This document shows positions 1,720 through 63,555 of a DNA stretch of 64,000 nt, one piece after another; position 1 is the stretch's first letter; the number at the start of each line of letters is the position of its first letter. The translations under genes and the position numbers were made by a program. The notes beneath the pieces were generated by a model. The model saw only the letters and a list, made by a program, of their open reading frames with translations, was not told the origin of the DNA and ran no database searches. Origin of the DNA: an uncultured Candidatus Saccharibacteria bacterium (lineage in GTDB: Bacteria; Patescibacteriota; Minisyncoccia; Phycocordibacterales; UBA9973); the NCBI GenBank assembly GCA_964544225.1, contig CAZIZK010000001.1:207477-271476 (forward strand), given 5' to 3'.

Positions 1720-4686
1720 ATGAAGATCAGTAGATACAAAACAATAGTATCAGTCCTGACACTTACCATGTTTGTATTTTCTACTATATTTACACCACTA
1801 GCTTATGCTTTAACAACAGGTACTGATGAAGCTACTACCAACAAAGCTGTATACACAACAGGTAATCCAGCATATACATTTAACATGCAAAACATCTCCA
1901 ATGTGTTGCCAGCTATCGTAGGGTGTACTGGCATAGTAAACAAGGTGAAGAAGTTTATGTTAAATACTTTTGATGGCGGAGCAGGTGTTCTAGAAGATAG
2001 CATTCCAGTATTCAAAGCAGGAACAGGTAACTATAAGGCCGGATATGATGATGGCAATGGAAGTGCTGACCCTGATGGGTTTACTGGTGGATACGCAATA
2101 GAGGCTGTACCGATTAATTCTACACAAGCAAACAAAGATACAAGTAAAATCGATACAAGTACAGAAAAATCTGCAAAAGAAGCTGAACAAAAGAAATTAA
2201 AAGATGAATGTCTAAATGGTGTCGCCTATGCACTAGCAAAAGCTCAGCTAGCATCTATAACAAATAAAACAGTTAATTGGATCAATAGTGGTTTCAATGG
2301 TGACCCATTATTTATACGCGACAGGGAATCATATTTTAAAAGTCTAGGTGACCAAACACTTCAAAGTTTACTTGGTCCGCTTTCAAGTGTTACAAATGCT
2401 ACCATATACCCATTTGGTGCAGACTTTGCAAGAACTGCAATACTTTCGGCTAAGACCAGTTTCCTAGATAGATCCAAATCAACTCTGACCAACTCACTAA
2501 AGCCGGGGGCAACTACTGATAGCTTTGCCACAGACTTCAGCCAGGGTGGGTGGGATGGCTGGTTCTCTCTCACACAAAACCCTCAGAACAACCCTCTGGG
2601 CTTCGGAATACTTGCATCACAAGAGTTAGCTGATAAAACAAATGCAAAAAAACAAGGAGCAAAAGAAGAGTTGGATCAAGGTGACGGATTCCTCTCACAG
2701 AAGAGGTGTGTAGAGTATGCAAAGGTGGATAACGGCACAGACCTAACTACAACTTCATCGAAGAATTATAGTGTTGTGTCGAACGATCCGAACACTCGAT
2801 TAACAGGCTTCTATATCAATACTAATTCTGTGAGCCTGGCTATTAAGTATAATGCGGGGGAGACAGGCACTATGGCTGCCAGTATTACAGATGCATCAGG
2901 TAACTCAAAAGGTGCGCAGACACTAGGTAAAACAAAAAAGGGTGAGAATAATCTAGGCACAACATTCAACAGCTTGTCTGCGTCTTCCTCATACAAGATC
3001 AAGTTTGCATATCAACCAGACGCAGGTAGTGAGAAGGAAATAATAATTATCAATATAACAACCACAGACAAAACTACGGGGAACCAGACACCCGACAGGT
3101 CAACCAATACATCTACCACAAGCACTGCTACTCCTGAATGTGTAAGGTGGGAGACAGTTACCCCAGGTACTGTGATAGCTGACCAGCTAAAGGTAAACTT
3201 GGGTTCATCTGTGCGCCAACTCGAACTTGCTGATAGTCTGAACGAATCACTTAGTGCAGTGTTTGAAGCATTGGTAAACCAGCTTATAAATCAGGGACTA
3301 TCTAGTCTAAGCAAGATAAATAGTGCAAATACTAATGGTCTTGGTGGTGCAGGTAGTAATAAAGTGTATGACACTGGTGGCAATAATGTTTCTGGTAAGT
3401 TATTGTCCGAAGATGGTGCAGGTGTTGGCTTGTCTATAAACAAAGGCACTGGGTGGTATAACGTAAATAATACTTTTGATATTACAAAAGACCTGGGTGA
3501 TACTTATAAAATGGAAAAGGGTAAGAAGGTTGTAATAAAGAAAGGTATCATATCTATACAATCCGACTACATAACTGCCGTAAAAAGCTCTATGAAAGAA
3601 TTGGATCCTATAATACCAGCACTTGGCGAATTGGACTATTGTATACCGGGACCAAATCCAAAGTGGAAGTCTCTCGCTGTACCAAATGTAAACAACACAA
3701 TGGAGATCCTACGAAACATAGAATCAGGGAAGGTAACTCCTAGCCAACTCACTGGATACGGCAAAGCTTTACCATTCCTGAGAAAGTTCAGTCCTGGATT
3801 CAAAATTAGTGAAAATATATATCGTATTACATCTAGTAGAAGACTGGAAAGTGAAGCAAAACAATTAGACCAATCGATACTGGACTCAATATTTGTATCA
3901 GAACTATTGATGAAATTCAATATCAAATTAGTAGGTGATCAGTATATATCTTACCGAAACAAAATGGATGAGTTGTATGGGCCAAACTCACCAATGCGTG
4001 ATGCTACGAGCGAGTGGTACTTGCCTATGGCGGAAGCTGGGTTGAACCTAACAAAGAACTTGATAGCTTATGATCAGAGCATGGGCGAAGTTATAAGTGA
4101 TTACACTAGTCAAATAAACCAAACAAATGCAAATATCTATAAACTAAATCAAATAAAGAAAAAGGTAGATGCTATAGTCCTAGCTGCAAAGAAGAGGCAG
4201 TTGGCTGACATAAGAAGTGGCAAGATAAAATTGAGTCCAGAATGTGCAAACTTGGCCCCACAAGATACAAATGTAGTAAATGGTGGTATATACACAGGCA
4301 ACAATACAGGCACTGGCACAAACACTGGTCCATCAGGTGGTACCACTGTAAAGTTTAAGAGCCCTGTTCCAAACTTTACTGTAACAACAAAAGAGGATTT
4401 GAGTAATTGTACATTTACATTACAAACAAAGAACACTTCTACAGATACTGTTGGACCATACAGGTGGGATATTTCATGGGGTGCACCTGCTTCAACAGGA
4501 GGGGCTACGCCAGAATATTCTATGGCAAAAGATTTAAATATGGGGCTTGTATCAAATGTTCATTATGGTGATATGTCTATAAAGCTAACCATCTCTGATA
4601 TTTTTGGCCAAGATGTAAGTATTACAAAGAAAATATCGACACAAAAAAGAACAAAGACATTATCAGGTGAAGCGTGTCCAAGATAA
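1720..4686 (+). CDS. Large secreted/surface protein (988 aa) with an N-terminal signal peptide. Function unknown.
   Basis: Signal-peptide-like N-terminus (hydrophobic stretch ending ...LAYALTTG), Thr/Asn/Gly-rich composition, and a long uninterrupted ORF translationally coupled to neighbours. Confidence 0.6.
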   Translation: MKISRYKTIVSVLTLTMFVFSTIFTPLAYALTTGTDEATTNKAVYTTGNPAYTFNMQNISNVLPAIVGCTGIVNKVKKFMLNTFDGGAGVLEDSIPVFKAGTGNYKAGYDDGNGSADPDGFTGGYAIEAVPINSTQANKDTSKIDTSTEKSAKEAEQKKLKDECLNGVAYALAKAQLASITNKTVNWINSGFNGDPLFIRDRESYFKSLGDQTLQSLLGPLSSVTNATIYPFGADFARTAILSAKTSFLDRSKSTLTNSLKPGATTDSFATDFSQGGWDGWFSLTQNPQNNPLGFGILASQELADKTNAKKQGAKEELDQGDGFLSQKRCVEYAKVDNGTDLTTTSSKNYSVVSNDPNTRLTGFYINTNSVSLAIKYNAGETGTMAASITDASGNSKGAQTLGKTKKGENNLGTTFNSLSASSSYKIKFAYQPDAGSEKEIIIINITTTDKTTGNQTPDRSTNTSTTSTATPECVRWETVTPGTVIADQLKVNLGSSVRQLELADSLNESLSAVFEALVNQLINQGLSSLSKINSANTNGLGGAGSNKVYDTGGNNVSGKLLSEDGAGVGLSINKGTGWYNVNNTFDITKDLGDTYKMEKGKKVVIKKGIISIQSDYITAVKSSMKELDPIIPALGELDYCIPGPNPKWKSLAVPNVNNTMEILRNIESGKVTPSQLTGYGKALPFLRKFSPGFKISENIYRITSSRRLESEAKQLDQSILDSIFVSELLMKFNIKLVGDQYISYRNKMDELYGPNSPMRDATSEWYLPMAEAGLNLTKNLIAYDQSMGEVISDYTSQINQTNANIYKLNQIKKKVDAIVLAAKKRQLADIRSGKIKLSPECANLAPQDTNVVNGGIYTGNNTGTGTNTGPSGGTTVKFKSPVPNFTVTTKEDLSNCTFTLQTKNTSTDTVGPYRWDISWGAPASTGGATPEYSMAKDLNMGLVSNVHYGDMSIKLTISDIFGQDVSITKKISTQKRTKTLSGEACPR

Positions 4687-4698
4687 TATTATAAAAAT

Positions 4699-6039
4699 AT
4701 GGATAAAAACCCACGAAAAAGTAAAGCTCTCGTAATCACCTTTGTACTAGTACTAGGCCTATTAATAGGTATGTACTTTGTATTTACGAGTGACACCTTG
4801 TTTGGGGTGAACAATAGTGTTGGTAAGAAGTTCTCGCCATTCCTGATAACCCCAAAGGAGAAGGACTTGAACCTAGTAGAGGACCCAAATGCAATCAATA
4901 CAGACAATTCAACAAATACAGATACTGATAATCCGGACAACAATACAAACCCAGATGGTGGCCTTATCGCAGGGGGTAATGACTTCTCGGGTAATGTTGG
5001 TAGTGGTGGTGTAGGCACTGGTATATATATGAACCCGGCTGGTGGGTCAGTTGCCTTACCTGGTGGTAGGGGGACTATAACACCTTCGAACTTCGTAGCA
5101 CAATGTAAGGATGGTAGGGATAATGATGGGGACAGTCTTGTGGATACATCCGACCCAGGCTGTCATACAGATGGTGATGCAACAAATGCAAAAAGTTACA
5201 ACAAGGATCAGTATCTAGAATACAACTTTATACCAGCATGTAGCGACGGAGTAGACAATGATAAAGATAAGCTGATAGATGATAAAGATCCCGGCTGTCA
5301 TAGTGATAACAATGCGAAGAATACAAAGACTTATACACCCAATTACGGATATGAATCCGATAACCAACTGACCAAAGGCAGCTCTTCTGGCGAGTGTACT
5401 GTCGACGACCTGCCACTCATATTTACAGCAGAGGAACAGGCACAGCTCGATGAGCTGACTCGCCAGTTCTACCGCCTAGCACCAACACTGAAATCAATAG
5501 ATGATATATTAGTAGAAGAAAAAGCAAGACAAAGCTATATAGACATAACAGATAATGCAAACACTCTGACAAATGAATGTTACGAGCAAACATACAATGA
5601 TAAATACTTGGCAAACAGTGGTGTTGTTATAACAGAAGGACATGAGCAATTAAATACACGATTTGATCATAAAGAACAAAAAACGCCTTATACTGGTGAC
5701 ACGAAAGTATCAATAGACACAATGGTGCCTTATTTGTGGGATAATAACAAAACATTATTAACTGGAATGCCCGGACTAAACAATGCTACACAAATCCCTA
5801 TATATGATTATGCAAGCAAGAGCTGGATTAACAAGGGTAGGACAGAAAGACGAGGGAACCCTTATATTGATTTAAAACCAACATCTTCCTACTGGCAAAT
5901 ATATGAAACCAAAACAAATGCAAAGAATGGGGACAACGGTGTATATGTAAACCATCGTGGTGATGTATGGAACAATACTCCGATAGGTAATGCTTACTTC
6001 CCTTGGGCTGATTGGGAAAATATGATGGGTATATGGTAG
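4699..6039 (+). CDS. Membrane-anchored protein with two Cys-flanked Asp-rich repeats (C-x-DG-x-DND-x-D...DPGCH), putatively calcium-binding and thrombospondin-type-3-like.
   Basis: N-terminal TM helix. Duplicated motif CKDGRDNDGDSLVDTSDPGCH / CSDGVDNDKDKLIDDKDPGCH. Confidence 0.5.
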   Translation: MDKNPRKSKALVITFVLVLGLLIGMYFVFTSDTLFGVNNSVGKKFSPFLITPKEKDLNLVEDPNAINTDNSTNTDTDNPDNNTNPDGGLIAGGNDFSGNVGSGGVGTGIYMNPAGGSVALPGGRGTITPSNFVAQCKDGRDNDGDSLVDTSDPGCHTDGDATNAKSYNKDQYLEYNFIPACSDGVDNDKDKLIDDKDPGCHSDNNAKNTKTYTPNYGYESDNQLTKGSSSGECTVDDLPLIFTAEEQAQLDELTRQFYRLAPTLKSIDDILVEEKARQSYIDITDNANTLTNECYEQTYNDKYLANSGVVITEGHEQLNTRFDHKEQKTPYTGDTKVSIDTMVPYLWDNNKTLLTGMPGLNNATQIPIYDYASKSWINKGRTERRGNPYIDLKPTSSYWQIYETKTNAKNGDNGVYVNHRGDVWNNTPIGNAYFPWADWENMMGIW

Positions 6040-18037: not shown

Positions 18038-18799
18038 TTATTTTACTTCTACGGCCTTTACCATAATAGTTCCATCCTCTTTCTTTAAGCTCCTCTTTAC
18101 ATACCACTCTTGGATTATTGTAAACACGTTACTTGTAACCCAATACAAAGCCACAGCTGCAGATATCTTGTAAGCTATAAAAGCTATAAATATAGGTAGT
18201 ATGTATTTCACATTCATGGACATACTGTCAGACATTTGTTCTTGGAAAGTCTTTGCCTTGGCTGGTATTGTTGGGTCAGCTTTTGGCTTCTTTGGAAACA
18301 TCAGGTATCCTTGGACAAATTGTGACACACCAGCAAGTATTGCAAGTACTAATGACTTGCCATGTATATCTATAACACCAAGGAACATTGTGTGTAAGTT
18401 CGTAGGCATACTAACGAATGAGTATAGCGGGTCAGTGCCAAGGGCCAAGCCTTTATAGAAAGCGTAATATAGGGCAAATATCACAGGAAGCTGTATCAGT
18501 AGAACAAGGCATCCAGAAAATGGGTTAACTTTGTATTGTTTATATAATTCGAAAGTCTTCTTTGCTTGTTCTTCTTTGTTTGGGTAATCTTCCTTGATCT
18601 TTTTGAGCATTGGCTCGATCTTCTTCATTAGAAACTGGCTACGGATAGACTTCTTTGAAAGAGGGAATAGTATAAGCTTTACAATAATAGTAAGGATTAT
18701 TACAGCAAAACCAACATCACCAAAGGTAATATTGTCTATAATAAAGATAAGTGCGTTATAAATAGGTTGATAAAATAGATTAGTCCAAATTGTTTGCAT
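18038..18799 (-). CDS. yidC: Membrane protein insertase YidC (short form).
   Basis: 253-aa polytopic membrane protein in the conserved rpmH-rnpA-yidD-yidC-jag array. Confidence 0.85.
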   Translation of the reverse strand: MQTIWTNLFYQPIYNALIFIIDNITFGDVGFAVIILTIIVKLILFPLSKKSIRSQFLMKKIEPMLKKIKEDYPNKEEQAKKTFELYKQYKVNPFSGCLVLLIQLPVIFALYYAFYKGLALGTDPLYSFVSMPTNLHTMFLGVIDIHGKSLVLAILAGVSQFVQGYLMFPKKPKADPTIPAKAKTFQEQMSDSMSMNVKYILPIFIAFIAYKISAAVALYWVTSNVFTIIQEWYVKRSLKKEDGTIMVKAVEVK

Positions 18800-18842
18800 T
18801 CAACCATTGTAACGCAATAAAGTCTAAAATCAAAATATTTCT

Positions 18843-19049
18843 TTATTTTAAAGGGTCTAAACGGTTTTTCTGCCACGGGTGGCAACGAAGAATCCTTTCC
18901 ACACCTTTATACACACCTTTAAAAGACCCATATTTCTCAATAGCCTGTTTGGTATATTCCGAGCAAGTTGGCACAAAAACACATGCATAGTGGGCACGGG
19001 TTGGGGTCTTTTGGTATATATTTATAAGCCAGATTAGTAATTTTTTCAA
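18843..19049 (-). CDS. yidD: Membrane protein insertion efficiency factor YidD.
   Basis: PTCSEY motif. ~68 aa. Confidence 0.8.
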
Positions 19050-19050
19050 T

Positions 19051-19380
19051 TTAAGCCTTTATTTTAGGGAATAATTGGGTCAGGTCGGCCTTGATTTCAG
19101 GAAAAGTGGCTTCTTTTGCCTGTTTTTTATAAAAAACTATATAAATAAAGCCTTTTTTAGGATTTATACCCGACATAGCCCTATAACCCTGTCTTCGCAG
19201 GGAAATACGCTTTGAAGCCAGCTTGGCTATGGATTTCGGGGCTACAAAAGCTAATTTATAGTCCGAATTACCAGAAAAAGCCTTATAACGCAAAGTAAAA
19301 AGAGGGCTATGTAGAACATTGCCTTCTTTTATTACAGAATCGAATAACCCTTTTGTTACCCGTCTATCCTTTGAAATCAT
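19051..19380 (-). CDS. rnpA: Ribonuclease P protein component RnpA.
   Basis: Basic ~109-aa protein immediately downstream of rpmH. Confidence 0.75.
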
Positions 19381-19382
19381 GA

Positions 19383-19523
19383 CTATTTTGAGACTGTGAG
19401 TTTTGCACGACCCTTTTGGCGTCGACGAGCAAGTATCTTGTTACCACCAGCTGTCTTTGTACGAGTCAGGAAGCCGTGAGTCTTTGCTCTTTTTCTTTTG
19501 TTTGGTTGGTATGTTTGAGACAT
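19383..19523 (-). CDS. rpmH: 50S ribosomal protein L34.
   Basis: [46 protein letters not shown]. The ORF-track start at 19574 is an upstream extension; the real start is at the MSQ Met. Confidence 0.9.
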
Positions 19524-19544
19524 ATAGGAAATATATACTATAAT

Positions 19545-19633
19545 GTACATTATTGCAAATCCACACGTTATCAACAGGTTAATTAAGAGTTTGTAATTAT
19601 TGGTTATAAGTAAATACGAGTATAATAAAAACT
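19545..19633. promoter_or_regulatory. rpmH-dnaA intergenic region with DnaA-box-like sites (AAATCCACA at 19557-19565, TTATCAACA at 19568-19576).
   Basis: Read directly. Each is one or two mismatches from TTATCCACA. Confidence 0.5.
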
Positions 19634-20980
19634 ATGAATAATGAAAAAGAGTTGTGGGAAACATGCCTAATAGATATCGAATCCAGTATTTCACGTGCCA
19701 ATTTCACAACATGGTTCAAGAACACTTCTATAGTAAAAGAGGATAGTGGCACACTACACATAGGTGTTCCGAACGAGTTTGTAAAGGATTGGTTGTATAA
19801 CAAGTTCCACAAGCTTATATTAAAAACTCTTATGACACACAAGGACGATATCCGAGGTGTGGAATATGTAATTGTTAGACACGATTCAAGTAAAGCTCAA
19901 GCTGTCACAGTACCAACACAAACAAACAACAAAGAGCTTCCACTAAACGATCTATATATTAATAAAGACGACAATCTAAATCCGAAATACACATTCAACT
20001 CTTTTATTGTTGGGCCATTCAACGAACTTGCTTATGCTGTATGCCAAGCCATAATAAACAGTCCAGGGCAGAGTTATAATCCATTCTTTGTATATGGAGG
20101 AACAGGCTTGGGTAAAACTCATATGATCCAAGCAGTAGGGAACACTATCAAAGCAAAATTTCCAAACAAGAAAATATTTTATGTTAGTCTAGAGAGGTTC
20201 TCTATAGACTATATAAATTCTTTAGCGAACAAGACTCCAAATGCTTTCAAGGAAAAGTATAGAAAATACGATGTAATAATCATGGATGATATCCAGTTCA
20301 TATCAGGTAAAGATAAAACTCAAGAGGAGTTGTTCCACCTATTCAACACATTACACGAGAGTAATAGGCAGATCATATTCTCATCCGACAAACACCCAAA
20401 CTTTATCCAAGGGTTAGAGGAGAGGTTGCAATCACGATTCGCTTCTGGTATGACAGTGCAGATAACCGAGCCAGATTATGAATCACGGATAGCTATAATA
20501 AAGGCTAAGTTACAGAATAATAACTGTGATGTGGATGAAGACGTGGTTTCTTACCTCGCAGCGTCTCTTGAGGGAAATATACGCGAATTAGAGGGTAGTC
20601 TGAACGCTATTGTCTGCCAATCACAACTAAAAAACAAAAGTATTAGCCTAACAGAAGCAAAACAACTTATAAAAAACAATATCAAACCAAAAAAGACTGT
20701 AGCTATAAAAGATGTTGTAAAGATAATAGCTGATTATTATGGTATAGAGGAGGAAACTATCTATGATAAAACAAGAAGGAAGGAGATAGTTCGTGCCCGC
20801 CAAGTAACAATGTATATATTGCGTGAAGATTTCAATGTGTCATATCCATTAATAGGTCAGAAGATGGGTGGTAAGGATCACACAACGGTTATACATTCAC
20901 ACCTAAAGATAAAAAAGGATTTAACAACAGACCCATCATTAGTACAAGAAGTGGAGAAGATTCGGATCATGTTTAAATAG
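19634..20980 (+). CDS. dnaA: Chromosomal replication initiator DnaA.
   Basis: AAA+ Walker A GGTGLGKTHMIQAVGN, and the C-terminal helix-turn-helix region ...RARQVTMYILRE.... Confidence 0.95.
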   Translation: MNNEKELWETCLIDIESSISRANFTTWFKNTSIVKEDSGTLHIGVPNEFVKDWLYNKFHKLILKTLMTHKDDIRGVEYVIVRHDSSKAQAVTVPTQTNNKELPLNDLYINKDDNLNPKYTFNSFIVGPFNELAYAVCQAIINSPGQSYNPFFVYGGTGLGKTHMIQAVGNTIKAKFPNKKIFYVSLERFSIDYINSLANKTPNAFKEKYRKYDVIIMDDIQFISGKDKTQEELFHLFNTLHESNRQIIFSSDKHPNFIQGLEERLQSRFASGMTVQITEPDYESRIAIIKAKLQNNNCDVDEDVVSYLAASLEGNIRELEGSLNAIVCQSQLKNKSISLTEAKQLIKNNIKPKKTVAIKDVVKIIADYYGIEEETIYDKTRRKEIVRARQVTMYILREDFNVSYPLIGQKMGGKDHTTVIHSHLKIKKDLTTDPSLVQEVEKIRIMFK

Positions 20981-21194
20981 TTGTGGATAAGTTGGTATAA
21001 AGTTGTTTATAAATGTTAATAAAATTAATTTATTAAGTATTATTAAAAATAAAAGTATTTAAATTAAAAGTTATCAACATTTCAAAATATTAAAAATTCA
21101 AAAATATATTTATAAATAAAGGTTTAAAAAGTAATCCACATAATACAGACAATAATAGTAATAATAATGTATTAATAGATAATATAAACAATAT
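20981..21194. promoter_or_regulatory. Candidate oriC: an AT-rich dnaA-dnaN spacer with DnaA boxes.
   Basis: tgtggataa at 20982-20990 is the reverse complement of a perfect TTATCCACA. TTATCAACA at 21071-21079 and TAATCCACA at 21132-21140 are each one mismatch. The surrounding sequence is extremely AT-rich. Confidence 0.6.
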
Positions 21195-22292
21195 ATGAAA
21201 ATCGAAACAACAATAGAAAAAATAAAAAAAGCTTTAAACATATCAGAAAGGATGACTGGTAAGAACCTAACACTACCAGTATTAAACTCCATACTAATGG
21301 TTGTTGAAAACAATAACCTAATACTAAGAGCTACTAACTTAAGTATTGGTGTGCAAATATCAATACCAGTAAAAGTTGAAAGCACTGGAACCGTAGCCAT
21401 AAAAGGTGATGTATTGAGTTCTATGTTTTCAAATATAAATACCGATACAAATGTTGTATTTACACAAAAAGATAATAATCTAAATATTAAAACAAAAAGT
21501 AATAATATAACACTAAAGACACTTCCACACGAAGACTTCCCAACACTACCGACAGTTACTGGTGAGAGCTGTACTATACCAGTAAATAAATTTGTAGAAG
21601 GTTTGAAGTCTGTTTATTTTAGTGCATCTGTTTCAGATATTAAACCAGAGATAGGCAGTGTTTATATTTACCCACAAGACGACAATCTTGTGTTTGTTGC
21701 CACTGATTCGTTCAGATTAGCCGAAAAGAAAGTAAAAATAAAACAGAACTTGAATTTTAATGGAATACTAATACCATTTAAAAATACAATAGAACTTATA
21801 AGGGTGTTCGAAGGTGAGTCTGGTGATCTAGATATTGTATTTAATAAAAACCAAGCATCATTTACTCTAGGTAATGTGTATATAACATCACGTGTTATTG
21901 ATGGAGTGTTTCCAGACTATAAACAAATAATACCTAAACAACCAACCACAGAAGTTGTTATATTAAAACAAGACATAATAAATGCATTAAAGGTGGCAAA
22001 TGTTTTATCTGATAAATTCAATCAAATAATATTCTCTATAAATCCAAAAGAAAAAAAGTTTGAAATAGAATCAAAGAATACTGATGTGGGGGAGAATATA
22101 ACAATAGTTGCTGGAGCTCTAAAAGGGGAAGAGGTAAACGCTTCATTTAATTATAGGTATATATTAGACTCGTTTCAATCAATATCAGCAGATAGTGTAT
22201 CTTTTGAATTAACAGGTGGTAATAAGGCAATGGTTATACGCCCTGTGAGTGATAATACATTCCTATACCTAGTTATGCCTATGAATAGGTAA
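21195..22292 (+). CDS. dnaN: DNA polymerase III beta sliding clamp.
   Basis: 365 aa, downstream of dnaA. Three-domain clamp-like organisation. Confidence 0.85.
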   Translation: MKIETTIEKIKKALNISERMTGKNLTLPVLNSILMVVENNNLILRATNLSIGVQISIPVKVESTGTVAIKGDVLSSMFSNINTDTNVVFTQKDNNLNIKTKSNNITLKTLPHEDFPTLPTVTGESCTIPVNKFVEGLKSVYFSASVSDIKPEIGSVYIYPQDDNLVFVATDSFRLAEKKVKIKQNLNFNGILIPFKNTIELIRVFEGESGDLDIVFNKNQASFTLGNVYITSRVIDGVFPDYKQIIPKQPTTEVVILKQDIINALKVANVLSDKFNQIIFSINPKEKKFEIESKNTDVGENITIVAGALKGEEVNASFNYRYILDSFQSISADSVSFELTGGNKAMVIRPVSDNTFLYLVMPMNR

Positions 22293-38932: not shown

Positions 38933-39262
38933 AAATAAAAAGACAATAGAAAAAGGCCTGGAGTATAATTCTGAATTCCTTCAGAAACATGCTCCAGGCC
39001 TTTGCCTTAATTTAGTCGTGTATAGCCTCTATCTTATGCCTACACATAATGTACAAATTTTAATCAGTTTTTACTCATTCCCAATATTTATATTTTCCCT
39101 AGTCGAGGGACACGTTGGAAGATACATAAAACTTTTAACTTGCTTACATTATATGACGCTTATGCTAGAATAGCAAATGTTAGCTGTGGATAATATAATT
39201 GTGGTCAGGCATATTTTTCTGGTGAAAAATTGCACGACCCTGGCTCGCGTCGTCACGCTCCG

Positions 39263-39290
39263 CCTCGCACAAAATATCCCATATTTTGTG
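39263..39290 (-). terminator. Hairpin gcacaaaatat-ccc-atattttgtgc directly 3' of tRNA-Lys.
   Basis: 11-bp perfect stem adjacent to the tRNA 3' end. Confidence 0.5.
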
Positions 39291-39361
39291 CGCCCGGTAG
39301 GAATCGAACCTACGACCATCTCCTTAAAAGGGAGCTGCTCTACCGACTGAGCTACGGGCGC
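39289..39361 (-). tRNA. tRNA-Lys (anticodon TTT).
   Basis: Manual cloverleaf: acceptor GCGCCCG/CGGGCGC, T-arm GGTTCGATTCC, anticodon loop CTTTTAA. Confidence 0.85.
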
Positions 39362-43629: not shown

Positions 43630-44055
43630 ATGAAGCATATAGTAAAAAGTGATGTTGTAAAAGGTTTTAGGGAGTTTGTGATCAGAGGGAACGCTATTGA
43701 TCTAGCTGTTGGTATTGTTGTAGGAGCAGCCTTTACGTCGGTTGTAAATGCTCTAGTAAAGGGCCTGATTACTCCGCTTATTGGTGCCATTGCTCGGGTT
43801 CCTGATTTTTCTGGATTGTATTTCACATTTCGTGATAGTAAGTTTATGTATGGCGATTTTATCAATACTCTTATTTCTTTTGTTCTATCCGCGGCAGCTA
43901 TATATTTCTTTGTTATTGTACCTATGAATAGTTTGAAGAAGAGAATAGATAAAAACAAACCCAAAGAGGATCCAACAACAAAGGATTGTGCTGAGTGTAT
44001 GAGTACTATACACATAAAGGCAAAGCGCTGCGCACATTGTGGGCAGGCGGTTTAG
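43630..44055 (+). CDS. mscL: Large-conductance mechanosensitive channel MscL, with an unusual C-terminal CxxC...CxxC zinc-ribbon-like tail.
   Basis: GFREFVIRGNAIDLAVGIVVGAAF signature. The ORF-track start at 43432 is an extension overlapping the convergent gene; the true start is the MKHIVK Met. Tail is DCAECMSTIHIKAKRCAHCGQ. Confidence 0.85.
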   Translation: MKHIVKSDVVKGFREFVIRGNAIDLAVGIVVGAAFTSVVNALVKGLITPLIGAIARVPDFSGLYFTFRDSKFMYGDFINTLISFVLSAAAIYFFVIVPMNSLKKRIDKNKPKEDPTTKDCAECMSTIHIKAKRCAHCGQAV

Positions 44056-44187
44056 GGGAAGTAGGGGAGATTCGCCGATACTTTAAAAACGGGTGGACCG
44101 CGAGTATGCTTTTCGAACCTTACAGGTTCAGCACACCTTTTCCATTCGCGAATACACTCATAAGGAAAAGGTTTTCGAATCCCCCAC

Positions 44188-44260
44188 GCAAGCAAATAAA
44201 TTTGCTTGCTCGCCGCAAAAAGAAAAAGCTCGACATGATGTCGAGCTTTTTCTTTTTGCG
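44188..44260. terminator. Two consecutive hairpins: a 9-bp stem (gcaagcaaa/tttgcttgc) and a perfect 20-bp stem (cgcaaaaagaaaaagctcga / tcgagctttttctttttgcg) abutting the tRNA-Ser 3' end.
   Basis: Read directly. They lie between mscL(+) and tRNA-Ser(-). Confidence 0.6.
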
Positions 44261-44345
44261 GAGGCGGGGGGATTCGAACTCCCGGACCGCGTAAACGGTC
44301 TCTTGTTTTCAAGACAAGTGCCTTCAACCACTCAGCCACACCTCC
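44259..44345 (-). tRNA. tRNA-Ser (anticodon TGA), long variable arm.
   Basis: GGAGGTG acceptor, anticodon loop CTTGAAA, long extra arm, T-arm GGAGTTCGAATCC. Confidence 0.85.
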
Positions 44346-45083: not shown

Positions 45084-46832
45084 ATGAATCAAAAATCAGA
45101 AACAAAATCATGCCAAAATTGTAAAAATGACTTTACTATCGAGCCGGAGGATTTTGTGTTTTATGACAAGATGGCTGTACCTGCTCCAACATTCTGCCCG
45201 CAGTGTCGCTTTCAAAGGCGATTGGCTCATAGGAATGACAGGTCTTTATACAGAAGGGAATGTGGACTATGTAATAAGAAAATTTTAAGTATTTACCACA
45301 AGGATTCTGTGATTAAAAATGTATTTTGTCCCGAGTGCTGGTGGGGTGACGGCTGGGACCCATTTAATTACGGAGTAGATTATGATTTTTCGAAAGATTT
45401 CTTTACTCAATATTTTGAATTTAAAAAGAATTCTCCACACCAAAGTGTGTATCATGTTAATTTTGTGAATAGTGAGTATTGTAATTTTGGCCACAGTTAT
45501 AAGAACTGCTATTTAGTTTTTGGTGGATATAATAATGAAAATGTTTCGTATGGAAATTTGATAGGGGATATTATGGATTCCTCTGATGTTTCTTTGTCTA
45601 CCAACTTAGAGATGTGTTATGAGGTGAATAATTGTTTCCACTCATCGAAGCTAAGATTTTGTAATAGTTGCGAGGATTCCAGCGACCTTACTTTCTGTAC
45701 AGATTGCCGAGGGTGCGTATCTTGCTTTGGTTGTGCTGGTTTGCGAAATAAACAATACAATATCTTCAATCAACAATATTCTAAAGCTGAATATGAAGAA
45801 AAATTAAAAGATCTAAACATATCAAGTTTTAAAAATAAAATAGAAATAGAAAATTATTTTAAAAATTTTGCATTACAATACCCGTATCGATATACCAGAA
45901 CTCGTAATGTTGTAGATTGTACTGGGGATGATATTACCAACTCTAAGAACTGTAAAGATGGTGTTTGGGGCCACGGGATGGAGGATTCCAGGTATGTATT
46001 CTTTACTGTAAATGCAAAAGAATGTTATGACATTACCGCTGTTGGTACGTTAACAGGCGGAACAGAACTATTATACGAAGTATCGAGCTCATTTGGTGGA
46101 CACAGGCAGATGGTGGGTATACGTACAGTGGGTGATAGAAATTCTTTTTACAGTGAAGACTGTCATAATTGTAATGATATTTTTGGTTGTATTGGGTTGA
46201 AGAAAAAGTCTTATTGTATCTTTAATAAACAATACTCAAAGGAAGAGTATGAAGAATTGTTACCAAAGATTATTGAACAAATGAAGGCTATGACTTATAC
46301 AGATAAGATGGGGCGTGTTTACGGATTTGGCGAATTTTGGCCTATTGAATTGTCACCGTTTGGCTACAATGAAACAAAGGCTATGGAGTATTTTATTTTA
46401 AATAAAAATGGAGTTCTGGATAAAAGGTTCAATTGGTATGAAAAAGAAGTAAATACTTATGAAGTTACAATGCAGAATATTAATATACCAGACGACAGTA
46501 GTAATGTAGACGAATCAATATTAAATGAAATAATAGAATGTGCACATAGTGAGTGCAATCATGGCTGTACAAAAGCTTTTAAGATAAACCCAAATGAATT
46601 CCAGGTTATAAAACAGTTAGGGGCACCACTACCGAGGGCTTGTCCTAATTGTCGTCATTATGAAAGATTGGACAAACAACAACCTATACAATTCTGGCAG
46701 CGTTCTTGTATGTGTGAACTAACGAACCATGAGCACGAAGGCAAGTGTCAGGTTGAGTTCCAAACTACTTACTCACCTGACAGACCTGAAAAGGTGTATT
46801 GTGAAAAGTGTTATCAACAGGAGGTGGTATAA
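45084..46832 (+). CDS. Cys-rich multi-zinc-ribbon protein, paralog 1 of 3 (582 aa). Family unknown.
   Basis: N-terminal CQNCKNDFTIEPEDFVFYDKMAVPAPTFCPQCRFQRRLAHRN...CGLC. An internally repeated module C-x2-C...FGC-GL-[RK]NK-Y-[CN]-IFN-[KQ]-QYSK-[AE]-EYEE occurs twice. A C-terminal ribbon homologous to the N-terminal one (FKINPNEF...PLPRACPNCRHYERL...CEKCYQQEVV). Confidence 0.6.
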   Translation: MNQKSETKSCQNCKNDFTIEPEDFVFYDKMAVPAPTFCPQCRFQRRLAHRNDRSLYRRECGLCNKKILSIYHKDSVIKNVFCPECWWGDGWDPFNYGVDYDFSKDFFTQYFEFKKNSPHQSVYHVNFVNSEYCNFGHSYKNCYLVFGGYNNENVSYGNLIGDIMDSSDVSLSTNLEMCYEVNNCFHSSKLRFCNSCEDSSDLTFCTDCRGCVSCFGCAGLRNKQYNIFNQQYSKAEYEEKLKDLNISSFKNKIEIENYFKNFALQYPYRYTRTRNVVDCTGDDITNSKNCKDGVWGHGMEDSRYVFFTVNAKECYDITAVGTLTGGTELLYEVSSSFGGHRQMVGIRTVGDRNSFYSEDCHNCNDIFGCIGLKKKSYCIFNKQYSKEEYEELLPKIIEQMKAMTYTDKMGRVYGFGEFWPIELSPFGYNETKAMEYFILNKNGVLDKRFNWYEKEVNTYEVTMQNINIPDDSSNVDESILNEIIECAHSECNHGCTKAFKINPNEFQVIKQLGAPLPRACPNCRHYERLDKQQPIQFWQRSCMCELTNHEHEGKCQVEFQTTYSPDRPEKVYCEKCYQQEVV

Positions 46833-46839
46833 TCATCTT

Positions 46840-48555
46840 ATGGTTCGAGAAACAAGAAATTGCCAAAACTGTAAGAATGACTTTACTATCGAGCCGGAGG
46901 ATTTTGTGTTTTATGACAAGATGGCTGTACCTGCTCCAACATTCTGCCCAGATTGTAGGCTTCAACACCGCCTTGCTATTTACAATGAACGATTCCTGTA
47001 TCACTCAAATTGTGAAAATTGTTCTAAAAAAATAATAACAATATATAAAACAGATTCAGGATTCAGGCCATTTTGTGAAGAATGTTTTTCTTCTGACAGC
47101 TGGGATGCAATTGACCAGGGGAGAGATTTTGATTTTTCTCGAGATTTTTTTACCCAATACAGAGATTTGCAAAGGAGCATTCCGGTGAATTATCGTGCCC
47201 ACCTAAATGATATTAATAGTGACTTTTCTAATCAATGTTTCCGTACTAAAAATGCGTACCTTTCTTTTAGTGTTATTGGGGTAGAAGATGTTTTGTATTC
47301 TAAACTAATCAATAGGCCATCTAGGCAGATAATAGATTCATTAAATGTTCGTGAATGTGAAATGTGTTACGAGCTTGTAAATACAACGAGTTCATACGGA
47401 TCCACTTTCTTAACAAATTGTAGGCAATGTGTGACATCACACTTCCTGATCGACTGTGTTGGATGCACTGATTGTTTTATGTCATACAACCTTCGTAATA
47501 AAAGTTATGTGTTTAGAAACAAACAACTTTCAAAAGAAGAGTATTATGAAGCTTTAAATGGGTTAAATAAGAATAAATACTCAGCTCACAAAGAACTTTG
47601 TGAGGAATATAAGGAAATGGCAAATAAAGTTATATATAAATTTTCCACTATTGTTAAGTCAGATGATTGTACTGGTAATATGATAGAAAATTCTCACAAT
47701 GCTAAAAATACTTTTAACTCCTTTTCTGTTGTAGATAGTAAATATATAGGTTTTTCTACAAAGCCAATAAGTGACTCTTATGACGTAACTATAATCGGGC
47801 AAACTGATCAGTGTATAGACATTATTGCTTCTGGTCGTGGTAATTATAAAGTAAAATTTACTTCTGGGGCAGGAGCTTCTTCATCTATGGAATATACTGA
47901 TTGGTGCAATGATTGCCAAGATGTATTTGGTTGTGTGGGATTGCGCAATAAAAAATATTGTATCTTAAATAAACAATACACAAAGGAGGATTATTTTGAA
48001 ATGCGTGAAAAAATAATAGAGCATATGAATAGCAATCCTTTTGTCGACAAGCGAGGTGTTGTTTATAAATACGGAACGTTTTTCCCAATACAACTCTCAC
48101 CATTTGCATATAATGAAACAGTAGCTTTTGAAGAATTTCCACTCTCAAAAGAGGAAACGATAGATTCTGGTTTTGTTTGGTATGAGCAGACAAAGAAGGA
48201 ACATATTCCAACAATACTTAGTACGGATTTGCCAGACAGTATTCCAGTAGATGAAAGTGAAATTCTGAATGAAATCATATCTTGTCCAAATAACGGAGAT
48301 ACAATACGTAATTGTACAGGGGCGTATCGTATTATAAAAGACGAACTTATGTATTATGATAAACTAGGGTTACCATTACCAAGATTCTGTCCTAACTGCA
48401 GATATTATGAAAGAAATGGAAGAACTTTACCATGGAGACTATGGGATAGAAAATGTATGAATAATGGGTGCGAAAATAAATTCCAAACCCCATATGCACC
48501 CGATCGGGCAGAGTTGGTTTATTGTGAAAAGTGTTATCAGCAGGAGGTGGTATAA
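46840..48555 (+). CDS. Cys-rich multi-zinc-ribbon protein, paralog 2 of 3, in tandem with paralog 1.
   Basis: Same architecture. The start is chosen at MVRETRN because the ORF-track extension overlaps paralog 1. A 74-bp block is 100% identical with paralog 1 (45126..45199 vs 46876..46949) and the last ~36 nt are near-identical. Confidence 0.6.
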   Translation: MVRETRNCQNCKNDFTIEPEDFVFYDKMAVPAPTFCPDCRLQHRLAIYNERFLYHSNCENCSKKIITIYKTDSGFRPFCEECFSSDSWDAIDQGRDFDFSRDFFTQYRDLQRSIPVNYRAHLNDINSDFSNQCFRTKNAYLSFSVIGVEDVLYSKLINRPSRQIIDSLNVRECEMCYELVNTTSSYGSTFLTNCRQCVTSHFLIDCVGCTDCFMSYNLRNKSYVFRNKQLSKEEYYEALNGLNKNKYSAHKELCEEYKEMANKVIYKFSTIVKSDDCTGNMIENSHNAKNTFNSFSVVDSKYIGFSTKPISDSYDVTIIGQTDQCIDIIASGRGNYKVKFTSGAGASSSMEYTDWCNDCQDVFGCVGLRNKKYCILNKQYTKEDYFEMREKIIEHMNSNPFVDKRGVVYKYGTFFPIQLSPFAYNETVAFEEFPLSKEETIDSGFVWYEQTKKEHIPTILSTDLPDSIPVDESEILNEIISCPNNGDTIRNCTGAYRIIKDELMYYDKLGLPLPRFCPNCRYYERNGRTLPWRLWDRKCMNNGCENKFQTPYAPDRAELVYCEKCYQQEVV

Positions 48556-60920: not shown

Positions 60921-60982
60921 GCTTTCTTTTTAAACGTTTTTCTGGTATAAAAGAGTAACTTGAGTAAAATCAAGAACAATAT

Positions 60983-61055
60983 GGGGGTTATGGTGTAACG
61001 GTTAACACTGAGGTTTGTGGAACCTTCGATCTGGGTTCGATTCCCAGTAGCCCCC
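60983..61055 (+). tRNA. tRNA-His (anticodon GTG) with the characteristic extra 5' G(-1) paired to C73.
   Basis: Manual fold: G-1, acceptor GGGGTTA/TAGCCCC, D-stem GTGT/ACAC, anticodon loop TTGTGGA, T-arm CTGGGTTCGATTCCCAG. Confidence 0.85.
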
Positions 61056-61097
61056 CAATAAAAAAGCCGCTTTCGAGCGGTCTTTTTTATTGGGGGG
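61051..61097 (+). terminator. Long composite hairpin (outer 16-bp stem ccccccaataaaaaag / cttttttattgggggg enclosing ccgct-ttcg-agcgg) overlapping the tRNA-His 3' end.
   Basis: Read directly. The reverse complement of the left arm equals the right arm. Confidence 0.6.
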
Positions 61098-61114
61098 CTA
61101 AGAAAGACACTTGA

Positions 61115-61320
61115 GTGTCTTTCGTCTGGGTGAGCTGTGTTAAGGGGAACCCTTTAGGGAAACACAGCGCAAGACCTTGAACATTTTGTACTCAAAAAGT
61201 GAAAGGTGTACAGTTTCTGTAAGAAAACGAAAGACCGTTAGCGATGTAATCGCCGATACGCGTACTCGCGGTCCCAGTTTCTCCTGTAAGGTTCGATAAG
61301 CGTACTCGCGGTCCCAGTCT
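61115..61320 (+). ncRNA. Candidate structured RNA or regulatory leader. The region is GC-richer than its surroundings, shows long-range pairing (gtctttcgt ... acgaaagac), nested hairpins (gctgtgtt...aacacagc; ccc-ttta-ggg), and a 2x direct repeat gcgtactcgcggtcccagt.
   Basis: No ORF of meaningful size. Multiple complementary segments were read directly. Class unassigned; no match to the tmRNA, RNase P, SRP or riboswitch consensus I can recall. Confidence 0.3.
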
Positions 61321-61374
61321 GTGTATTTTATGCTATAATTGTTCCATTAACAGTTTATTTCAATTTTTATTTAT

Positions 61375-61770
61375 ATGACAACAGGATTATTGATCGCATT
61401 GCTCGGAGCTGTAGTTAGCTTCCTTTTGGGCTGGTTGTGGTATTCAAAGTTTATGTTTGGTAAGTTCTGGATGGCCGAGATGGGCATAACAGCAGAACCA
61501 ACAAAGGCCGAGAAGAAGGCTATGATGCCAAAGATGCTTGCCCTAGGTTTATTCGGTGACTTTGTAAGGTCTTTTGTTTTTCTATTACTTGTGGCTACAC
61601 TTCGTGCTAACCAGTTCTACCTTGGTGCATTTATCTGGCTTGGATTTATATTGCCAATGTTATTGAACGCAGTTATGTACGAGAAGAAGTCATGGAGACT
61701 ATTCCTAATCCACGCTGGTTACTACCTAGTATCTATCATGGCTATTGGTTTCGTATTTTCATTCTTCTAA
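61375..61770 (+). CDS. Polytopic membrane protein of unknown function (131 aa).
   Basis: Four hydrophobic helices. ORF with a downstream terminator. Confidence 0.55.
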   Translation: MTTGLLIALLGAVVSFLLGWLWYSKFMFGKFWMAEMGITAEPTKAEKKAMMPKMLALGLFGDFVRSFVFLLLVATLRANQFYLGAFIWLGFILPMLLNAVMYEKKSWRLFLIHAGYYLVSIMAIGFVFSFF

Positions 61771-61878: not shown

Positions 61879-63555
61879 ATGGAATACAATAGTGAAAATA
61901 AGATATGTCAGAACTGCAAAAACGACTTCCAAATCGAGCCGGATGATTTTGGCTTTTATGATAAGATCGGGGTCCCAGCACCGACTTGGTGTGTAGATTG
62001 TAGGCAGCTTCGCCGTTATGCATGGAGAAATGAGAGGACACTATATAGGCGCAATTGTGACTTGTGTAGTAAATCTACAGTAACAATATATTCAGCCGAC
62101 AAACCATACAAAGTATATTGTGTGTCTTGCTGGTGGAGCGACAGCTGGGATGAAAGTGAGTACGGAAGGGACTTTGATTTTACCCGACCCTTCTTCGAGC
62201 AGTTTGCCGAACTGCAAAGGGATGTTCCTCGTATGGCACTTCTGACAAAGAACAGTACAAACTCAGAATATACAAATCACTCAGGTAACAACAAGAATGC
62301 TTATATCTCTTTTGCTACTTTTGATAGTGAAAATATTTTATATGGAACATGGGTTATGGACTCACGCGATTGTACCGACTGTAGCTTTGTTTATGAAAAA
62401 GGCGAGAAGTTGTACGAGTGTATCGATACGCATAATTGCTATAAATCACAGTACTCTGTCTTTATGAACAGCTCTACCGACTGTATGTACTGCTTTGATG
62501 TGAATGGTTCTGGCAATTGTTTTATGTCTTGCAATCTACGTAGTCAGAATTATGTTTTTAGAAATCAGAAATATAGCAGAGAAGAATATTTAGAATTGGT
62601 GGGCCAATACGACTTATCATCTTATGCTGTCCGCCAAGAATTGTTCAAGGAATATATAGATATGGTTAGGAACCAGGCTATACATAAATACATGCAAGGG
62701 GAGAGGAATATAAATTCTTTTGGGAACTTACTATTTTCTTGCAAGAATACGATCAATTGTTTCGAGCTTGATCGTGCCGAGGATTGTAAAAATCTTTATA
62801 GTGGTTTAGACATCAAGGATTCTATGGATCTGTACCATGTAGGGCGCAAAGTAGAACTATGTTATGAATGCCAAGGGTCTGTTGGAATTTACAATACACA
62901 ATTTTGCCACCTTTGTTATGACAATTCACACCTGATGTATTGTGACTCTTGCCAGAATAGCCAGAACTTATTTGGCTGTGTATCTGTAAAGAAGGGCGAG
63001 TACATGATATTTAATAAAAAGTATTCAAAGGAAGAGTACACAGAGTTAAAGAATAAGATAATTGAACACATGAAAAGTACTGGCGAGTTTGGCGAATTTT
63101 TCCCTATAGAGATTGCCCCAGTATATTTCAACGAGACTCGTGCGATGATATATATGCCAATGGGAAAAGACGCAGTTCTGGCTAAAGGTTGGAACTGGGA
63201 GGAAAAGGCCCCAGGAGTATTTGGCAAAGGCACGACAGATATGAATGAAGTTCCAGACAGTATCAATGATGTTGATGAGGAATATATAAAGAATATTTTT
63301 ACCTGTATAGATTGTGATAAAAATTATAATATAACAGCTGAAGAGTTTGCCTTTTATAAGAGGGAGGTTGTGCCACTTCCACACAAATGTCCAGATTGTA
63401 GAGAGAAGGGTAGAATAGCTCAGAGGATGGAAAGGCACCTATGGCATCGTGGTTGTTCCAATGATGGATGTACAAATGAATTCGAAAGTCCTTACGAGCC
63501 AAACCGGCCCGAGAAGGTGTATTGTGAGGATTGTTATAAAAAGGAAGTATTATAA
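61879..63555 (+). CDS. Cys-rich multi-zinc-ribbon protein, paralog 3 of 3 (558 aa).
   Basis: N-terminal CQNCKNDFQIEPDDFGFYDKIGVPAPTWCVDCRQLRRYAWRNERTLYRRNCDLC. Two internal modules (...CFMSCNLRSQNYVFRNQKYSREEYLEL / ...FGCVSVKKGEYMIFNKKYSKEEYTEL). C-terminal FAFYKREVVPLPHKCPDCREKGRIAQRMERHLWHRGC...RPEKVYCEDCYKKEVL. Confidence 0.6.
   Translation: MEYNSENKICQNCKNDFQIEPDDFGFYDKIGVPAPTWCVDCRQLRRYAWRNERTLYRRNCDLCSKSTVTIYSADKPYKVYCVSCWWSDSWDESEYGRDFDFTRPFFEQFAELQRDVPRMALLTKNSTNSEYTNHSGNNKNAYISFATFDSENILYGTWVMDSRDCTDCSFVYEKGEKLYECIDTHNCYKSQYSVFMNSSTDCMYCFDVNGSGNCFMSCNLRSQNYVFRNQKYSREEYLELVGQYDLSSYAVRQELFKEYIDMVRNQAIHKYMQGERNINSFGNLLFSCKNTINCFELDRAEDCKNLYSGLDIKDSMDLYHVGRKVELCYECQGSVGIYNTQFCHLCYDNSHLMYCDSCQNSQNLFGCVSVKKGEYMIFNKKYSKEEYTELKNKIIEHMKSTGEFGEFFPIEIAPVYFNETRAMIYMPMGKDAVLAKGWNWEEKAPGVFGKGTTDMNEVPDSINDVDEEYIKNIFTCIDCDKNYNITAEEFAFYKREVVPLPHKCPDCREKGRIAQRMERHLWHRGCSNDGCTNEFESPYEPNRPEKVYCEDCYKKEVL

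Follow-up and report, generated by a model that had tools for sequence, protein, structure and literature searches.

Elements that integrate at tRNA genes, exemplified by the tycheposons of Prochlorococcus and following the attP/attB logic of the lambda type, insert at the 3' ends of many different tRNA genes and leave the tRNA intact; a partial copy of the tRNA lies at the far boundary, degenerate remnants are found, the accessory cargo is small, and close relatives differ in having or lacking a given insertion. Partial tRNAs, tandem insertion and the outward displacement of older elements are hallmarks of this class (10.1101/2020.12.28.424599). In the attC sites of integrons and the attP(+) site of the CTX phage (XerCD), spaced inverted copies of the target pair with each other and so rebuild a duplex that mimics the target; the structure is kept by compensatory change, side hairpins or bulges lie in the middle of the site, and the sites occur in arrays and with single-gene 'cassettes'. 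Traits of both kinds recur in the family of small non-coding elements that is the subject of this report. The starting point is a stretch of 64,000 nucleotides from an uncultured Candidatus Saccharibacteria bacterium (positions 207,477 to 271,476 of contig CAZIZK010000001.1, assembly GCA_964544225.1; the whole stretch is called the window and is numbered from its first nucleotide), and within it the interval between a tRNA-His gene and a gene for a DUF1761 membrane protein. Segment 61057-61318 of the window is, to judge from its sequence and that of its relatives, a rearranged, cargo-less copy of this family, whose members occupy tRNA 3' flanks.

We incline, with modest confidence, to the explanation that these elements are non-autonomous, become integrated at tRNA 3' ends and carry a module which, once folded, mimics the end in question. 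Bacteria of the candidate phyla radiation have tiny genomes, few mobile elements have been described in them, and their gene exchange is poorly understood; if the explanation is correct, it would give gene flux in these organisms a concrete route that can be tested, and would add a new example of structure-encoded recombination sites.

Elements at the 3' ends of tRNA genes

The exact 19-mer GCGTACTCGCGGTCCCAGT occurs twice in the interval, at 61260-61278 and 61300-61318; shuffled sequences give 0 matches. Scanned over one genome per species, it finds 18 loci, of which nine are chance matches inside GC-rich coding DNA. The other nine come from Paceibacteria/Nomurabacteria or from bins without a lineage name and carry the motif just downstream of tRNA-His; in one of them the tRNA is tRNA-Glu, and in another (L015; related loci are cited by such numbers) only a partial tRNA-His 3' end is retained. 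A degenerate pattern search added 14 metagenome loci and matched no viral contig, and phage, plasmid and viral-contig searches gave no match to the family. A covariance model, R1, was built from an alignment of 16 simple units. Full units detected with R1 lie only beside tRNA genes (His, Glu, Pro, Ser, Leu, Val and Arg) and always on the strand of the tRNA; over the ~250 kb scanned, every strong match adjoins a tRNA or sits in an array at a tRNA end, the sole matches away from a tRNA being one marginal pair in L008/L025 (13.7 bits, E 0.86). These elements, about 0.1-0.25 kb in size, make up what appears to be an undescribed family of hairpin-rich elements located directly 3' of tRNA genes in Paceibacteria/Nomurabacteria; no published description of it was found in literature searches.

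Read outward from the tRNA, the common plan begins with the terminator (an A-tract, a GC hairpin and a U-tract); the acceptor 3' strand, copied in antisense, lengthens its stem. After it, a 9-bp hairpin precedes the T-stem 3' strand and T-loop, these too copied in antisense. P2, a long hairpin with a variable tip, leads into a junction that reads either G-T-A-C-(T/A)-G or TACCTG; beyond it are P3 (stem of 4-5 bp, loop TGTAA), the T-loop copied in sense orientation (TTCGAT or TTCAAA) and AA; and finally P4 (GCG-TACT-CGC), GG and a sense copy of the T-stem 3' strand. In many cases there follows a further copy, in decay, of the acceptor strand and trailer. P1/P1b is the pairing of the antisense with the sense copies of the tRNA end, so that in the folded strand the final ~20-35 bp of the tRNA gene reappear as a duplex carrying side hairpins.

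The identity of the copied segment follows that of the neighboring tRNA. At most element-bearing tRNAs, the reverse complement of the T-loop and T-stem 3' strand lies 53-78 nt downstream and has 0-2 mismatches (the match deviates at three His loci: the window, L018 and L019), and at tRNAs without an element it is found at 3-5 mismatches only. The antisense word is GTAGGACTCGAA at tRNA-Val, GGGGGATTCGAA at tRNA-Ser, and CTGGGAATCGAA or CTGGGATTTGAA at the two types of tRNA-His. An anti-acceptor 8-mer, with 0-1 mismatches, is present in most element-bearing loci and absent at empty sites. One copy stands apart in its setting: the L019 unit (197-352 of that locus), which is without P4, lies between tRNA-Val and tRNA-Arg and is co-oriented with them (the window equivalents of these two tRNAs are 13 nt apart). 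No terminator accompanies it, and an 8-bp stem, TAATGAAC/GTTCATTA, the only terminal stem found in any copy, closes it. Because it lies between co-oriented tRNAs with no terminator, it is the only copy that must be transcribed.

Conservation of the fold

The fold of the unit is under selection. Pair statistics were taken from an alignment, A2, that was fitted to the model and hence favors the structure, but the margin is large even so: 93.1% of cells pair, compared with 72% in shuffles, and none of 500 shuffles reaches the observed value; sliding the partner strand by 1-3 columns leaves at most 47% paired. Both sides have changed in 23 of the 26 pairs. The 9-bp hairpin, for which 18 homologous copies form a gapless alignment, is 100% paired, with eight of its nine pairs altered on both sides, and P4 covaries among GCG/CGC, GGC/GCC and GTG/CAC, with ATG/CAT in L034. 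Pairing is 94% Watson-Crick; among 609 cells there are 4 G.U and 5 A.C pairs, and wobble pairs therefore do not tell the strand. One P2 subtype has a conserved tandem G.A/A.G, which is compatible with the tRNA-sense strand only. The loops UGUAA (P3) and UACU (P4) are invariant.

Gain, loss and cargo

Sites at tRNA-His were sampled through homologues of the upstream VKOR gene (n=9 sites) and not by presence of the element. Four of the nine are filled (the window, L034, L035 and L042) and five are empty (L039/40, L041, L043, L044 and L045); the empty sites have plain trailers that lack the anti-acceptor extension, which therefore belongs to the element. Sites at tRNA-Leu, tRNA-Val and tRNA-Ser are likewise filled only in some genomes. 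The elements also turn over rapidly: the internal modules differ among the window, L034 and L035 (VKOR 78-86% identical); one and the same P2 subtype occurs at tRNA-Ser (window), tRNA-His (L011, L028) and tRNA-Pro (L026); and one unit of L028 has at its end the acceptor sequence that belongs to the other tRNA-His type.

At three loci a single gene lies between the module, which is tRNA-proximal, and a direct repeat, 10-21 nt long, of the tRNA 3' end and trailer. In L004 (tRNA-Glu) the repeat matches at 20/21 nt and the cargo encodes a 171-aa P-loop protein; in L013 (tRNA-Leu) the repeat is GCACAATAATAA (12/12) and the cargo, on the opposite strand, encodes a 286-aa multi-pass membrane protein (both proteins judged from sequence); in L020 (tRNA-His) the repeat is TAGGCACCCA versus TAGGACCCA and the cargo encodes a phosphoribosyltransferase (Pfam). 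In L004 the acceptor strand starts with TAG, and it is exactly there that homology to the tRNA resumes; the units end at the same boundary between CCCAG and TAG. A decaying copy of the acceptor and trailer is also found directly after cargo-less units (10/11 in L042, 7/9 in L035, and in L012, L008 and L031). An intact tRNA together with a far direct repeat of its own 3' end is found in L004, L013, L020, L042, L035, L031 and L012. None of the copies encodes an integrase of its own, the cargo-less ones being without an open reading frame (ORF) and the three cargo genes being of other kinds; the element, if mobile, is therefore non-autonomous.

Tandem periods form arrays in L011, L009 and L020, with each period preceded by its own terminator. 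A 198-aa gene X adjoins the units in L009/L018 and is absent in L021. In L015, genes for a GIY-YIG nuclease, an Mrr-type restriction endonuclease and a DUF4238 protein (2672-5083) abut the partial tRNA-His 3' end CAGTAGGCACCCC (~2400-2500), which is followed by an array, and there is no intact tRNA within the 8 kb examined; the arrangement resembles the right-hand edge of a larger island that has inserted at tRNA-His. Short-read (Logan) contigs break at tRNA-His, as is expected of assembly at a multi-copy repeat: L001 starts inside the gene (at ~61001 of the window) and contigs L036-L038 stop inside it at ...GAGGTTTG. The family breaks short-read assemblies at tRNA genes.

The copy downstream of tRNA-His in the window

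The tRNA-His(GTG) gene occupies 60984-61056 on the plus strand (ARAGORN; Rfam tRNA, 61.4 bits), and its last ~21 nt, with the T-loop TTCGATT, the T-stem 3' strand CCCAG and the acceptor 3' strand TAGCCCCCC, are the template that is copied in the element. The DUF1761 gene (Pfam PF08570) occupies 61375-61770. The features that follow are all on the plus strand. A long perfect hairpin (61048-61100) overlaps the end of the tRNA; its arms, 61048-61066 and 61082-61100, are a 19-nt inverted repeat of 100% complementarity on either side of a GC hairpin (61067-61080). The left arm consists of the tRNA-His acceptor 3' strand and the A-tract, and the right arm of the U-tract and GGGGGGCTA (61092-61100), which is antisense to that acceptor strand. 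Terminator-like sites are predicted here on both strands, and the hairpin is taken to be a bidirectional terminator for tRNA-His. Between the anti-acceptor and anti-T-stem segments sits the 9-bp hairpin GAAAGACAC-TTGA-GTGTCTTTC (61102-61123), an inverted repeat that is identical in L035.

The 5' strand of P1, GTCTGGG (61124-61130), is antisense to the T-stem 3' strand CCCAG and was placed by covariance-model alignment and pair counts; its partner is TCCCAG at 61272-61277 (or 61312-61317), and in the minimum-free-energy fold 61126-61130 is paired with the first CCCAG. Beyond it, module-by-module comparison delimits an insertion of ~95 nt (61131-61226) that is common only to the window His copy and L018/L021. 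An additional hairpin, Px (61131-61173), opens it; a hairpin resembling P2, with the loop UACU (61174-61207), comes next, and the junction GTACAG (61208-61213) leads to the hairpin TTTC-TGTAA-GAAA (61214-61226), which resembles P3. The Px stem is GCTGTGTT/AACACAGC as against GCTCGGG/CCCGAGC in L018/L021, a fully compensated difference, but one between two distinct sequences only. The unit then continues with a degenerate antisense T-loop and junction, ACGAAAGAC (61227-61235; canonical form AATCGAAAGAC), and, the canonical P2 being deleted, with P3, GCGA-TGTAA-TCGC (61241-61253), CGATAC as the sense T-loop copy (of TTCGAT; 61254-61259), P4, GCG-TACT-CGC (61260-61269), and GG-TCCCAGT, the sense copy of the T-stem 3' strand (61270-61278). 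P4 and GG-TCCCAGT together are the first copy of the 19-mer. A second, partial 3' module belonging to the direct-repeat family follows at 61281-61318; it is made up of CTCC-TGTAA-GGTT (61281-61293), CGATAA (61294-61299), P4 (61300-61309) and GGTCCCAGT (61310-61318), its P3 is degenerate (with a mutated 5' strand), and it is without a 5' partner strand of its own. The twofold repeat of the window is therefore a duplication of the 3' module (P3, P4 and T-stem copy). The same layout of a unit with an extra 3' module is found in L034, L022 and L031; in L034, the closest relative (VKOR 86% identical), the second P4 is altered to ATG-TACT-CAT and its pairing is kept. The window His region scores only 28.9 bits with R1 (61215-61279, E = 1e-4) because the copy is rearranged.

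A first-pass annotation, made by a model from the letters of the window and a list of its ORFs, had singled out this interval as a structured non-coding region, and covariation among the relatives, just described, is strong. It was right that no gene lies between tRNA-His and the membrane-protein gene, the sole ORF there being one of 40 aa with a TTG start and not credible; its 'markedly' GC-rich composition was an overstatement (45-47%, versus 36-44% in the flanks). Folding, compared with that of shuffles, is marginal on the plus strand (z = -2.0) and gives z = -4.0 on the minus strand. The two-copy repeat that had been noted is real; its coordinates were 2 nt off, and the true repeat extends over 34 nt (61245-61278 and 61285-61318, 85% identical, with a spacing of 40). 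The 'ggttcgat' that had been assigned to a spacer between the copies is instead a copy of the tRNA T-stem/T-loop. The hairpin gctgtgtt...aacacagc is present, at 61131-61171. A 9-nt complementarity on which a long-range pairing had been based also exists (61117-61125 with 61227-61235), but the pairing is unsupported by relatives: GUCUUUC is the 3' arm of the local 9-bp hairpin, which displaces it.

An extended -10-like promoter of the DUF1761 gene, TGCTATAAT, was read from the sequence at 61331-61339 (plus strand); it has no -35 and so was missed by a simple scan. This site is downstream of the element, which therefore lies outside the DUF1761 5' untranslated region. Another promoter-like motif, TTTTCTGGTATAA, is located at 60938-60950 of the window and is conserved ahead of tRNA-His in every related locus. 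In L009/L018, TTTTCTGGTATAA also follows a truncated unit (GTCTGGGAATCGAAAGAC-TTTTCTGGTATAT), driving the next gene; the joint suggests recombination at a common CTTTTC.

Other copies in the window

Three of the seven window tRNAs (His, Ser and Lys) carry the element. A canonical copy follows tRNA-Ser(TGA) (44258-44345, minus strand), at 44091-44261 on the minus strand (R1, 86.7 bits, E = 1.6e-19), and consists of the long hairpin (44213-44261), the 9-bp hairpin (44188-44209) and a 97-nt canonical unit (44091-44187). The 5' end of this unit is a 12-nt word, the GGGGGATTCGAA mentioned above, that is the exact reverse complement of the T-loop and T-stem 3' strand of tRNA-Ser. The copy faces the 3' end of a convergent MscL-like gene (43630-44055). 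A variant, 'type B', follows tRNA-Lys (39288-39361, minus strand), at 39201-39270 on the minus strand: it starts with GTGCG, antisense to the last 5 nt of tRNA-Lys, and its core has the form AGGCGGAG-hairpin-GAGCCAGGGTCG-hairpin-TGACC. The type B core is also found after tRNA-Arg, tRNA-Glu and tRNA-His in L026, L031, L024, L027, L013 and L015, where it is often joined to the standard P4 and T-stem 3' module; the tRNA-Lys element has no Rfam match.

ORFs resembling yidC, rnpA, dnaA and dnaN (recognized by N-terminal sequences only) at 18038-22292 would place a replication origin near 19.4 kb. With the origin there, replication would run in the direction of tRNA-His and its element and head-on into the tRNA-Ser and tRNA-Lys copies; element orientation therefore tracks the tRNA and not the replication fork. 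The window also encodes three paralogous cysteine-rich proteins of ~560-610 aa (61879-63555, 45084-46832 and 46729-48555), which have treble-clef zinc-finger-like ends and belong to no firm Pfam or NCBIfam family; homologues are found in L026 (2-943 and 10357-12051). In the window and L026 they lie within a few kb of element-bearing tRNAs, which may be coincidence.

Known RNAs and repeats considered

At gathering thresholds, only tRNA passes in Rfam 15 scans of the window and 17 related loci, and permissive scans (E <= 5-10) of the His, Ser and Lys elements return only a terminator hairpin, well below threshold; the absence of a match to the standard RNAs, which the first-pass annotation had noted, is thereby confirmed. 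Transfer-messenger RNA (tmRNA) is rejected by ARAGORN as well as by Rfam, RNase P, signal recognition particle and 6S RNAs by Rfam, and neither program recognizes a tRNA- or tmRNA-like domain in the element. The core motifs required of hammerhead, twister, pistol and hepatitis delta virus (HDV)-like ribozymes are not conserved (judged by eye against the consensus sequences), and the Rfam scans are negative for these too.

Among mobile or repetitive sequences, REP, REPIN and MITE repeats were set aside: the strong matches are confined to tRNA ends and not dispersed, and a terminal stem (8 bp) is present in L019 only. Repeats like those of ToxI in type III toxin-antitoxin systems do not fit two copies that are part of a larger unit and have a DUF1761 gene downstream. 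A bridge RNA of the IS110 kind is rejected, as the guide-like segments share target positions and the element has no neighboring recombinase gene; so is a primer-binding site, as the antisense segment matches the genomic trailer and not the added CCA. A small RNA from the minus strand using the bidirectional terminator, an idea prompted by the z value of -4.0, was set aside: it would turn the tandem G.A into C.U, no promoter is conserved for it, and the L019 copy lies inside a tRNA operon.

Proposed integration and its alternatives

If, as we prefer, the elements integrate at tRNA 3' ends, site-specific recombination would occur there, with the crossover at or just after the T-stem/acceptor boundary, CCCAG-TAG. 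The element would supply a replacement tRNA end and a terminator, and the old end would be pushed outward, there to decay; repeated insertion and unit-to-unit recombination would generate tandem and partial copies such as the twofold repeat of the window. Some copies would carry one cargo gene, and the recombinase, encoded outside the element, would act in trans. The folded module would probably be the recombination substrate, as are integron attC and the CTX-phage attP(+) hairpin, and transcription of the element would be passive read-through from the tRNA. A more far-reaching proposal, which we regard as rather unlikely, is that of an integron-like gene-capture system operating on tRNA genes, with a single-strand fold of ~200 nt copying the last ~35 bp and bearing three side hairpins; a recombinase encoded elsewhere would join the folded module to the 3' end of that tRNA, the module would retarget by carrying the tail of another tRNA, and single-gene cassettes or empty modules would be delivered behind many tRNAs.

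Integration has evidence to contend with. Genes for an integrase, a transposase or a reverse transcriptase are absent from every copy examined and from its immediate surroundings, and a check made only by eye recognized none among the 55 ORFs of the window. The right-hand direct repeat is unrecognizable in the window's own copy, the right boundary of which has decayed, and in L013 the outer direct repeat is better kept than the unit-adjacent copy, which misfits the rule that older is further out. The step in which a folded strand would recombine is carried over by analogy from other systems. The invariant UGUAA and UACU loops and the conserved tandem G.A are also what would be expected of a functional RNA, and the L019 unit, with co-oriented tRNAs to either side and no terminator, is transcribed where it stands.

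These last points lead directly to the notion, in our estimation somewhat unlikely, that the family specifies a functional structured RNA derived from the tRNA 3' trailer. A read-through transcript would fold into the multi-hairpin unit, P1 and the acceptor-like stem would imitate the acceptor/T-stem minihelix of the neighboring tRNA, and RNase P, RNase Z, or RNase III acting on the long hairpin could free a stable RNA that would act in tRNA maturation, quality control or sensing. Strong covariation with invariant loops is consistent with this notion, as is a tandem G.A/A.G in P2 that is sensible only on the tRNA-sense strand; the P3 and P4 loops are complementary over GUA/UAC, which would permit a kissing contact; the unit between tRNA-Val and tRNA-Arg in L019, with its 8-bp closing stem, is certainly transcribed; and the succession of acceptor 5' strand, hairpin, T-stem, expanded 'T-loop', T-stem and acceptor 3' strand is tRNA-like in topology. 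If it were right, the family would be a new RNA class tied to tRNA 3' ends. However, a strong terminator precedes most copies, which are without a promoter, and the arrays have a terminator ahead of each period; a free-standing small RNA is doubtful for the same reason. The acceptor 3' copy is free to decay and the window lacks it, and the duplex copies the single-stranded sequence of the T-loop, which points to copying at the level of DNA and not to mimicry of tRNA shape. An RNA would usually contain more G.U pairs than 4 in 609 cells, half of the orthologous tRNA-His sites can do without the element, and the cargo genes and direct repeats are left unaccounted for.

The near-absence of anything but Watson-Crick pairing is in keeping with another reading, in which the elements have neither mobility nor function and are local by-products of palindrome formation: the tRNA terminator hairpin would have undergone fold-back or inverted duplication, and tandem duplication and gene conversion among the copies of one genome would have come after; the hairpins would then persist only because unpaired antisense tRNA sequence would disturb tRNA folding. 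The sense-antisense-sense layout around hairpin centers, the partial, degenerate copies and the failure to find a recombinase are all compatible with such an origin, which we nevertheless consider distinctly improbable: it leaves unexplained the near-identical internal modules at different tRNAs in different genomes, the invariant loops, the single-gene insertions with 10-21-nt direct repeats of the tRNA end, and the L028 unit that ends in the acceptor sequence of the other type of tRNA-His. Highly improbable is the regulation in cis of the DUF1761 gene, be it by a riboswitch or leader or by an operator or iteron pair formed by the 34-nt repeats, both of which the first-pass annotation had entertained. 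The region is structured and the repeats end 13 nt before TGCTATAAT, but the distribution of the element already contradicts such a role. The element also follows tRNA-Ser and tRNA-Lys, where the next gene is convergent; the downstream genes differ in every related locus, with no consistent family among them, and in L035 an MFS gene separates the element from DUF1761. A promoter-like site after the element and the lack of an Rfam riboswitch match even at E <= 10 likewise tell against the leader proposal. The iteron proposal fails because what is repeated is the 3' module of a larger folded unit; this module is single in most loci, and compensatory change keeps its hairpin.

Relation to known systems

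What has been found is a tRNA-anchored family that marks variable single-gene insertions and has a covarying fold copying its own target, and it accounts for a puzzling class of 'structured intergenic regions'. With REP/BIME/REPIN and MITE repeats it has in common that it is multi-copy, non-coding, hairpin-forming, intergenic, often located at terminators, organized in mosaic clusters and non-autonomous. Unlike them, it is bound to tRNA 3' ends and to the orientation of the tRNA, and its ends copy the neighboring tRNA; terminal inverted repeats with a short target duplication are not found (save for the 8-bp stem of L019), and no RAYT or transposase was seen. The tRNA-like RNAs, such as the tmRNA domain, YrlA and the t-elements of plant mitochondria, resemble it in having an acceptor-like stem, a hairpin and a T-stem-like helix and in being tRNA-adjacent; however, the present element escapes detection by ARAGORN and by the tRNA-clan models of Rfam, has no D or anticodon arm, has ~85 nt in place of the T-loop, and does not conserve the acceptor 3' strand.

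The resemblances to integron attC and to CTX-phage attP(+) set out at the beginning are qualified by the target, which is here the end of a tRNA gene and not attI or dif, by the sequence conservation of the loops, and by single-strand recombination, a step that for this family we infer; no IntI gene is near the present copies. The closest likeness is to the integrative elements that target tRNA genes, from which the family differs in being without an integrase or other mobility gene, in the size of most copies (only ~0.2 kb, about that of a bare attP), and in its antisense copy of the tRNA end and covarying hairpins, which are not a described feature of those elements. The kind of element would thus be known; what would be new is a tRNA-site integrative element that dispenses with an integrase and carries a folded module mimicking its own target.

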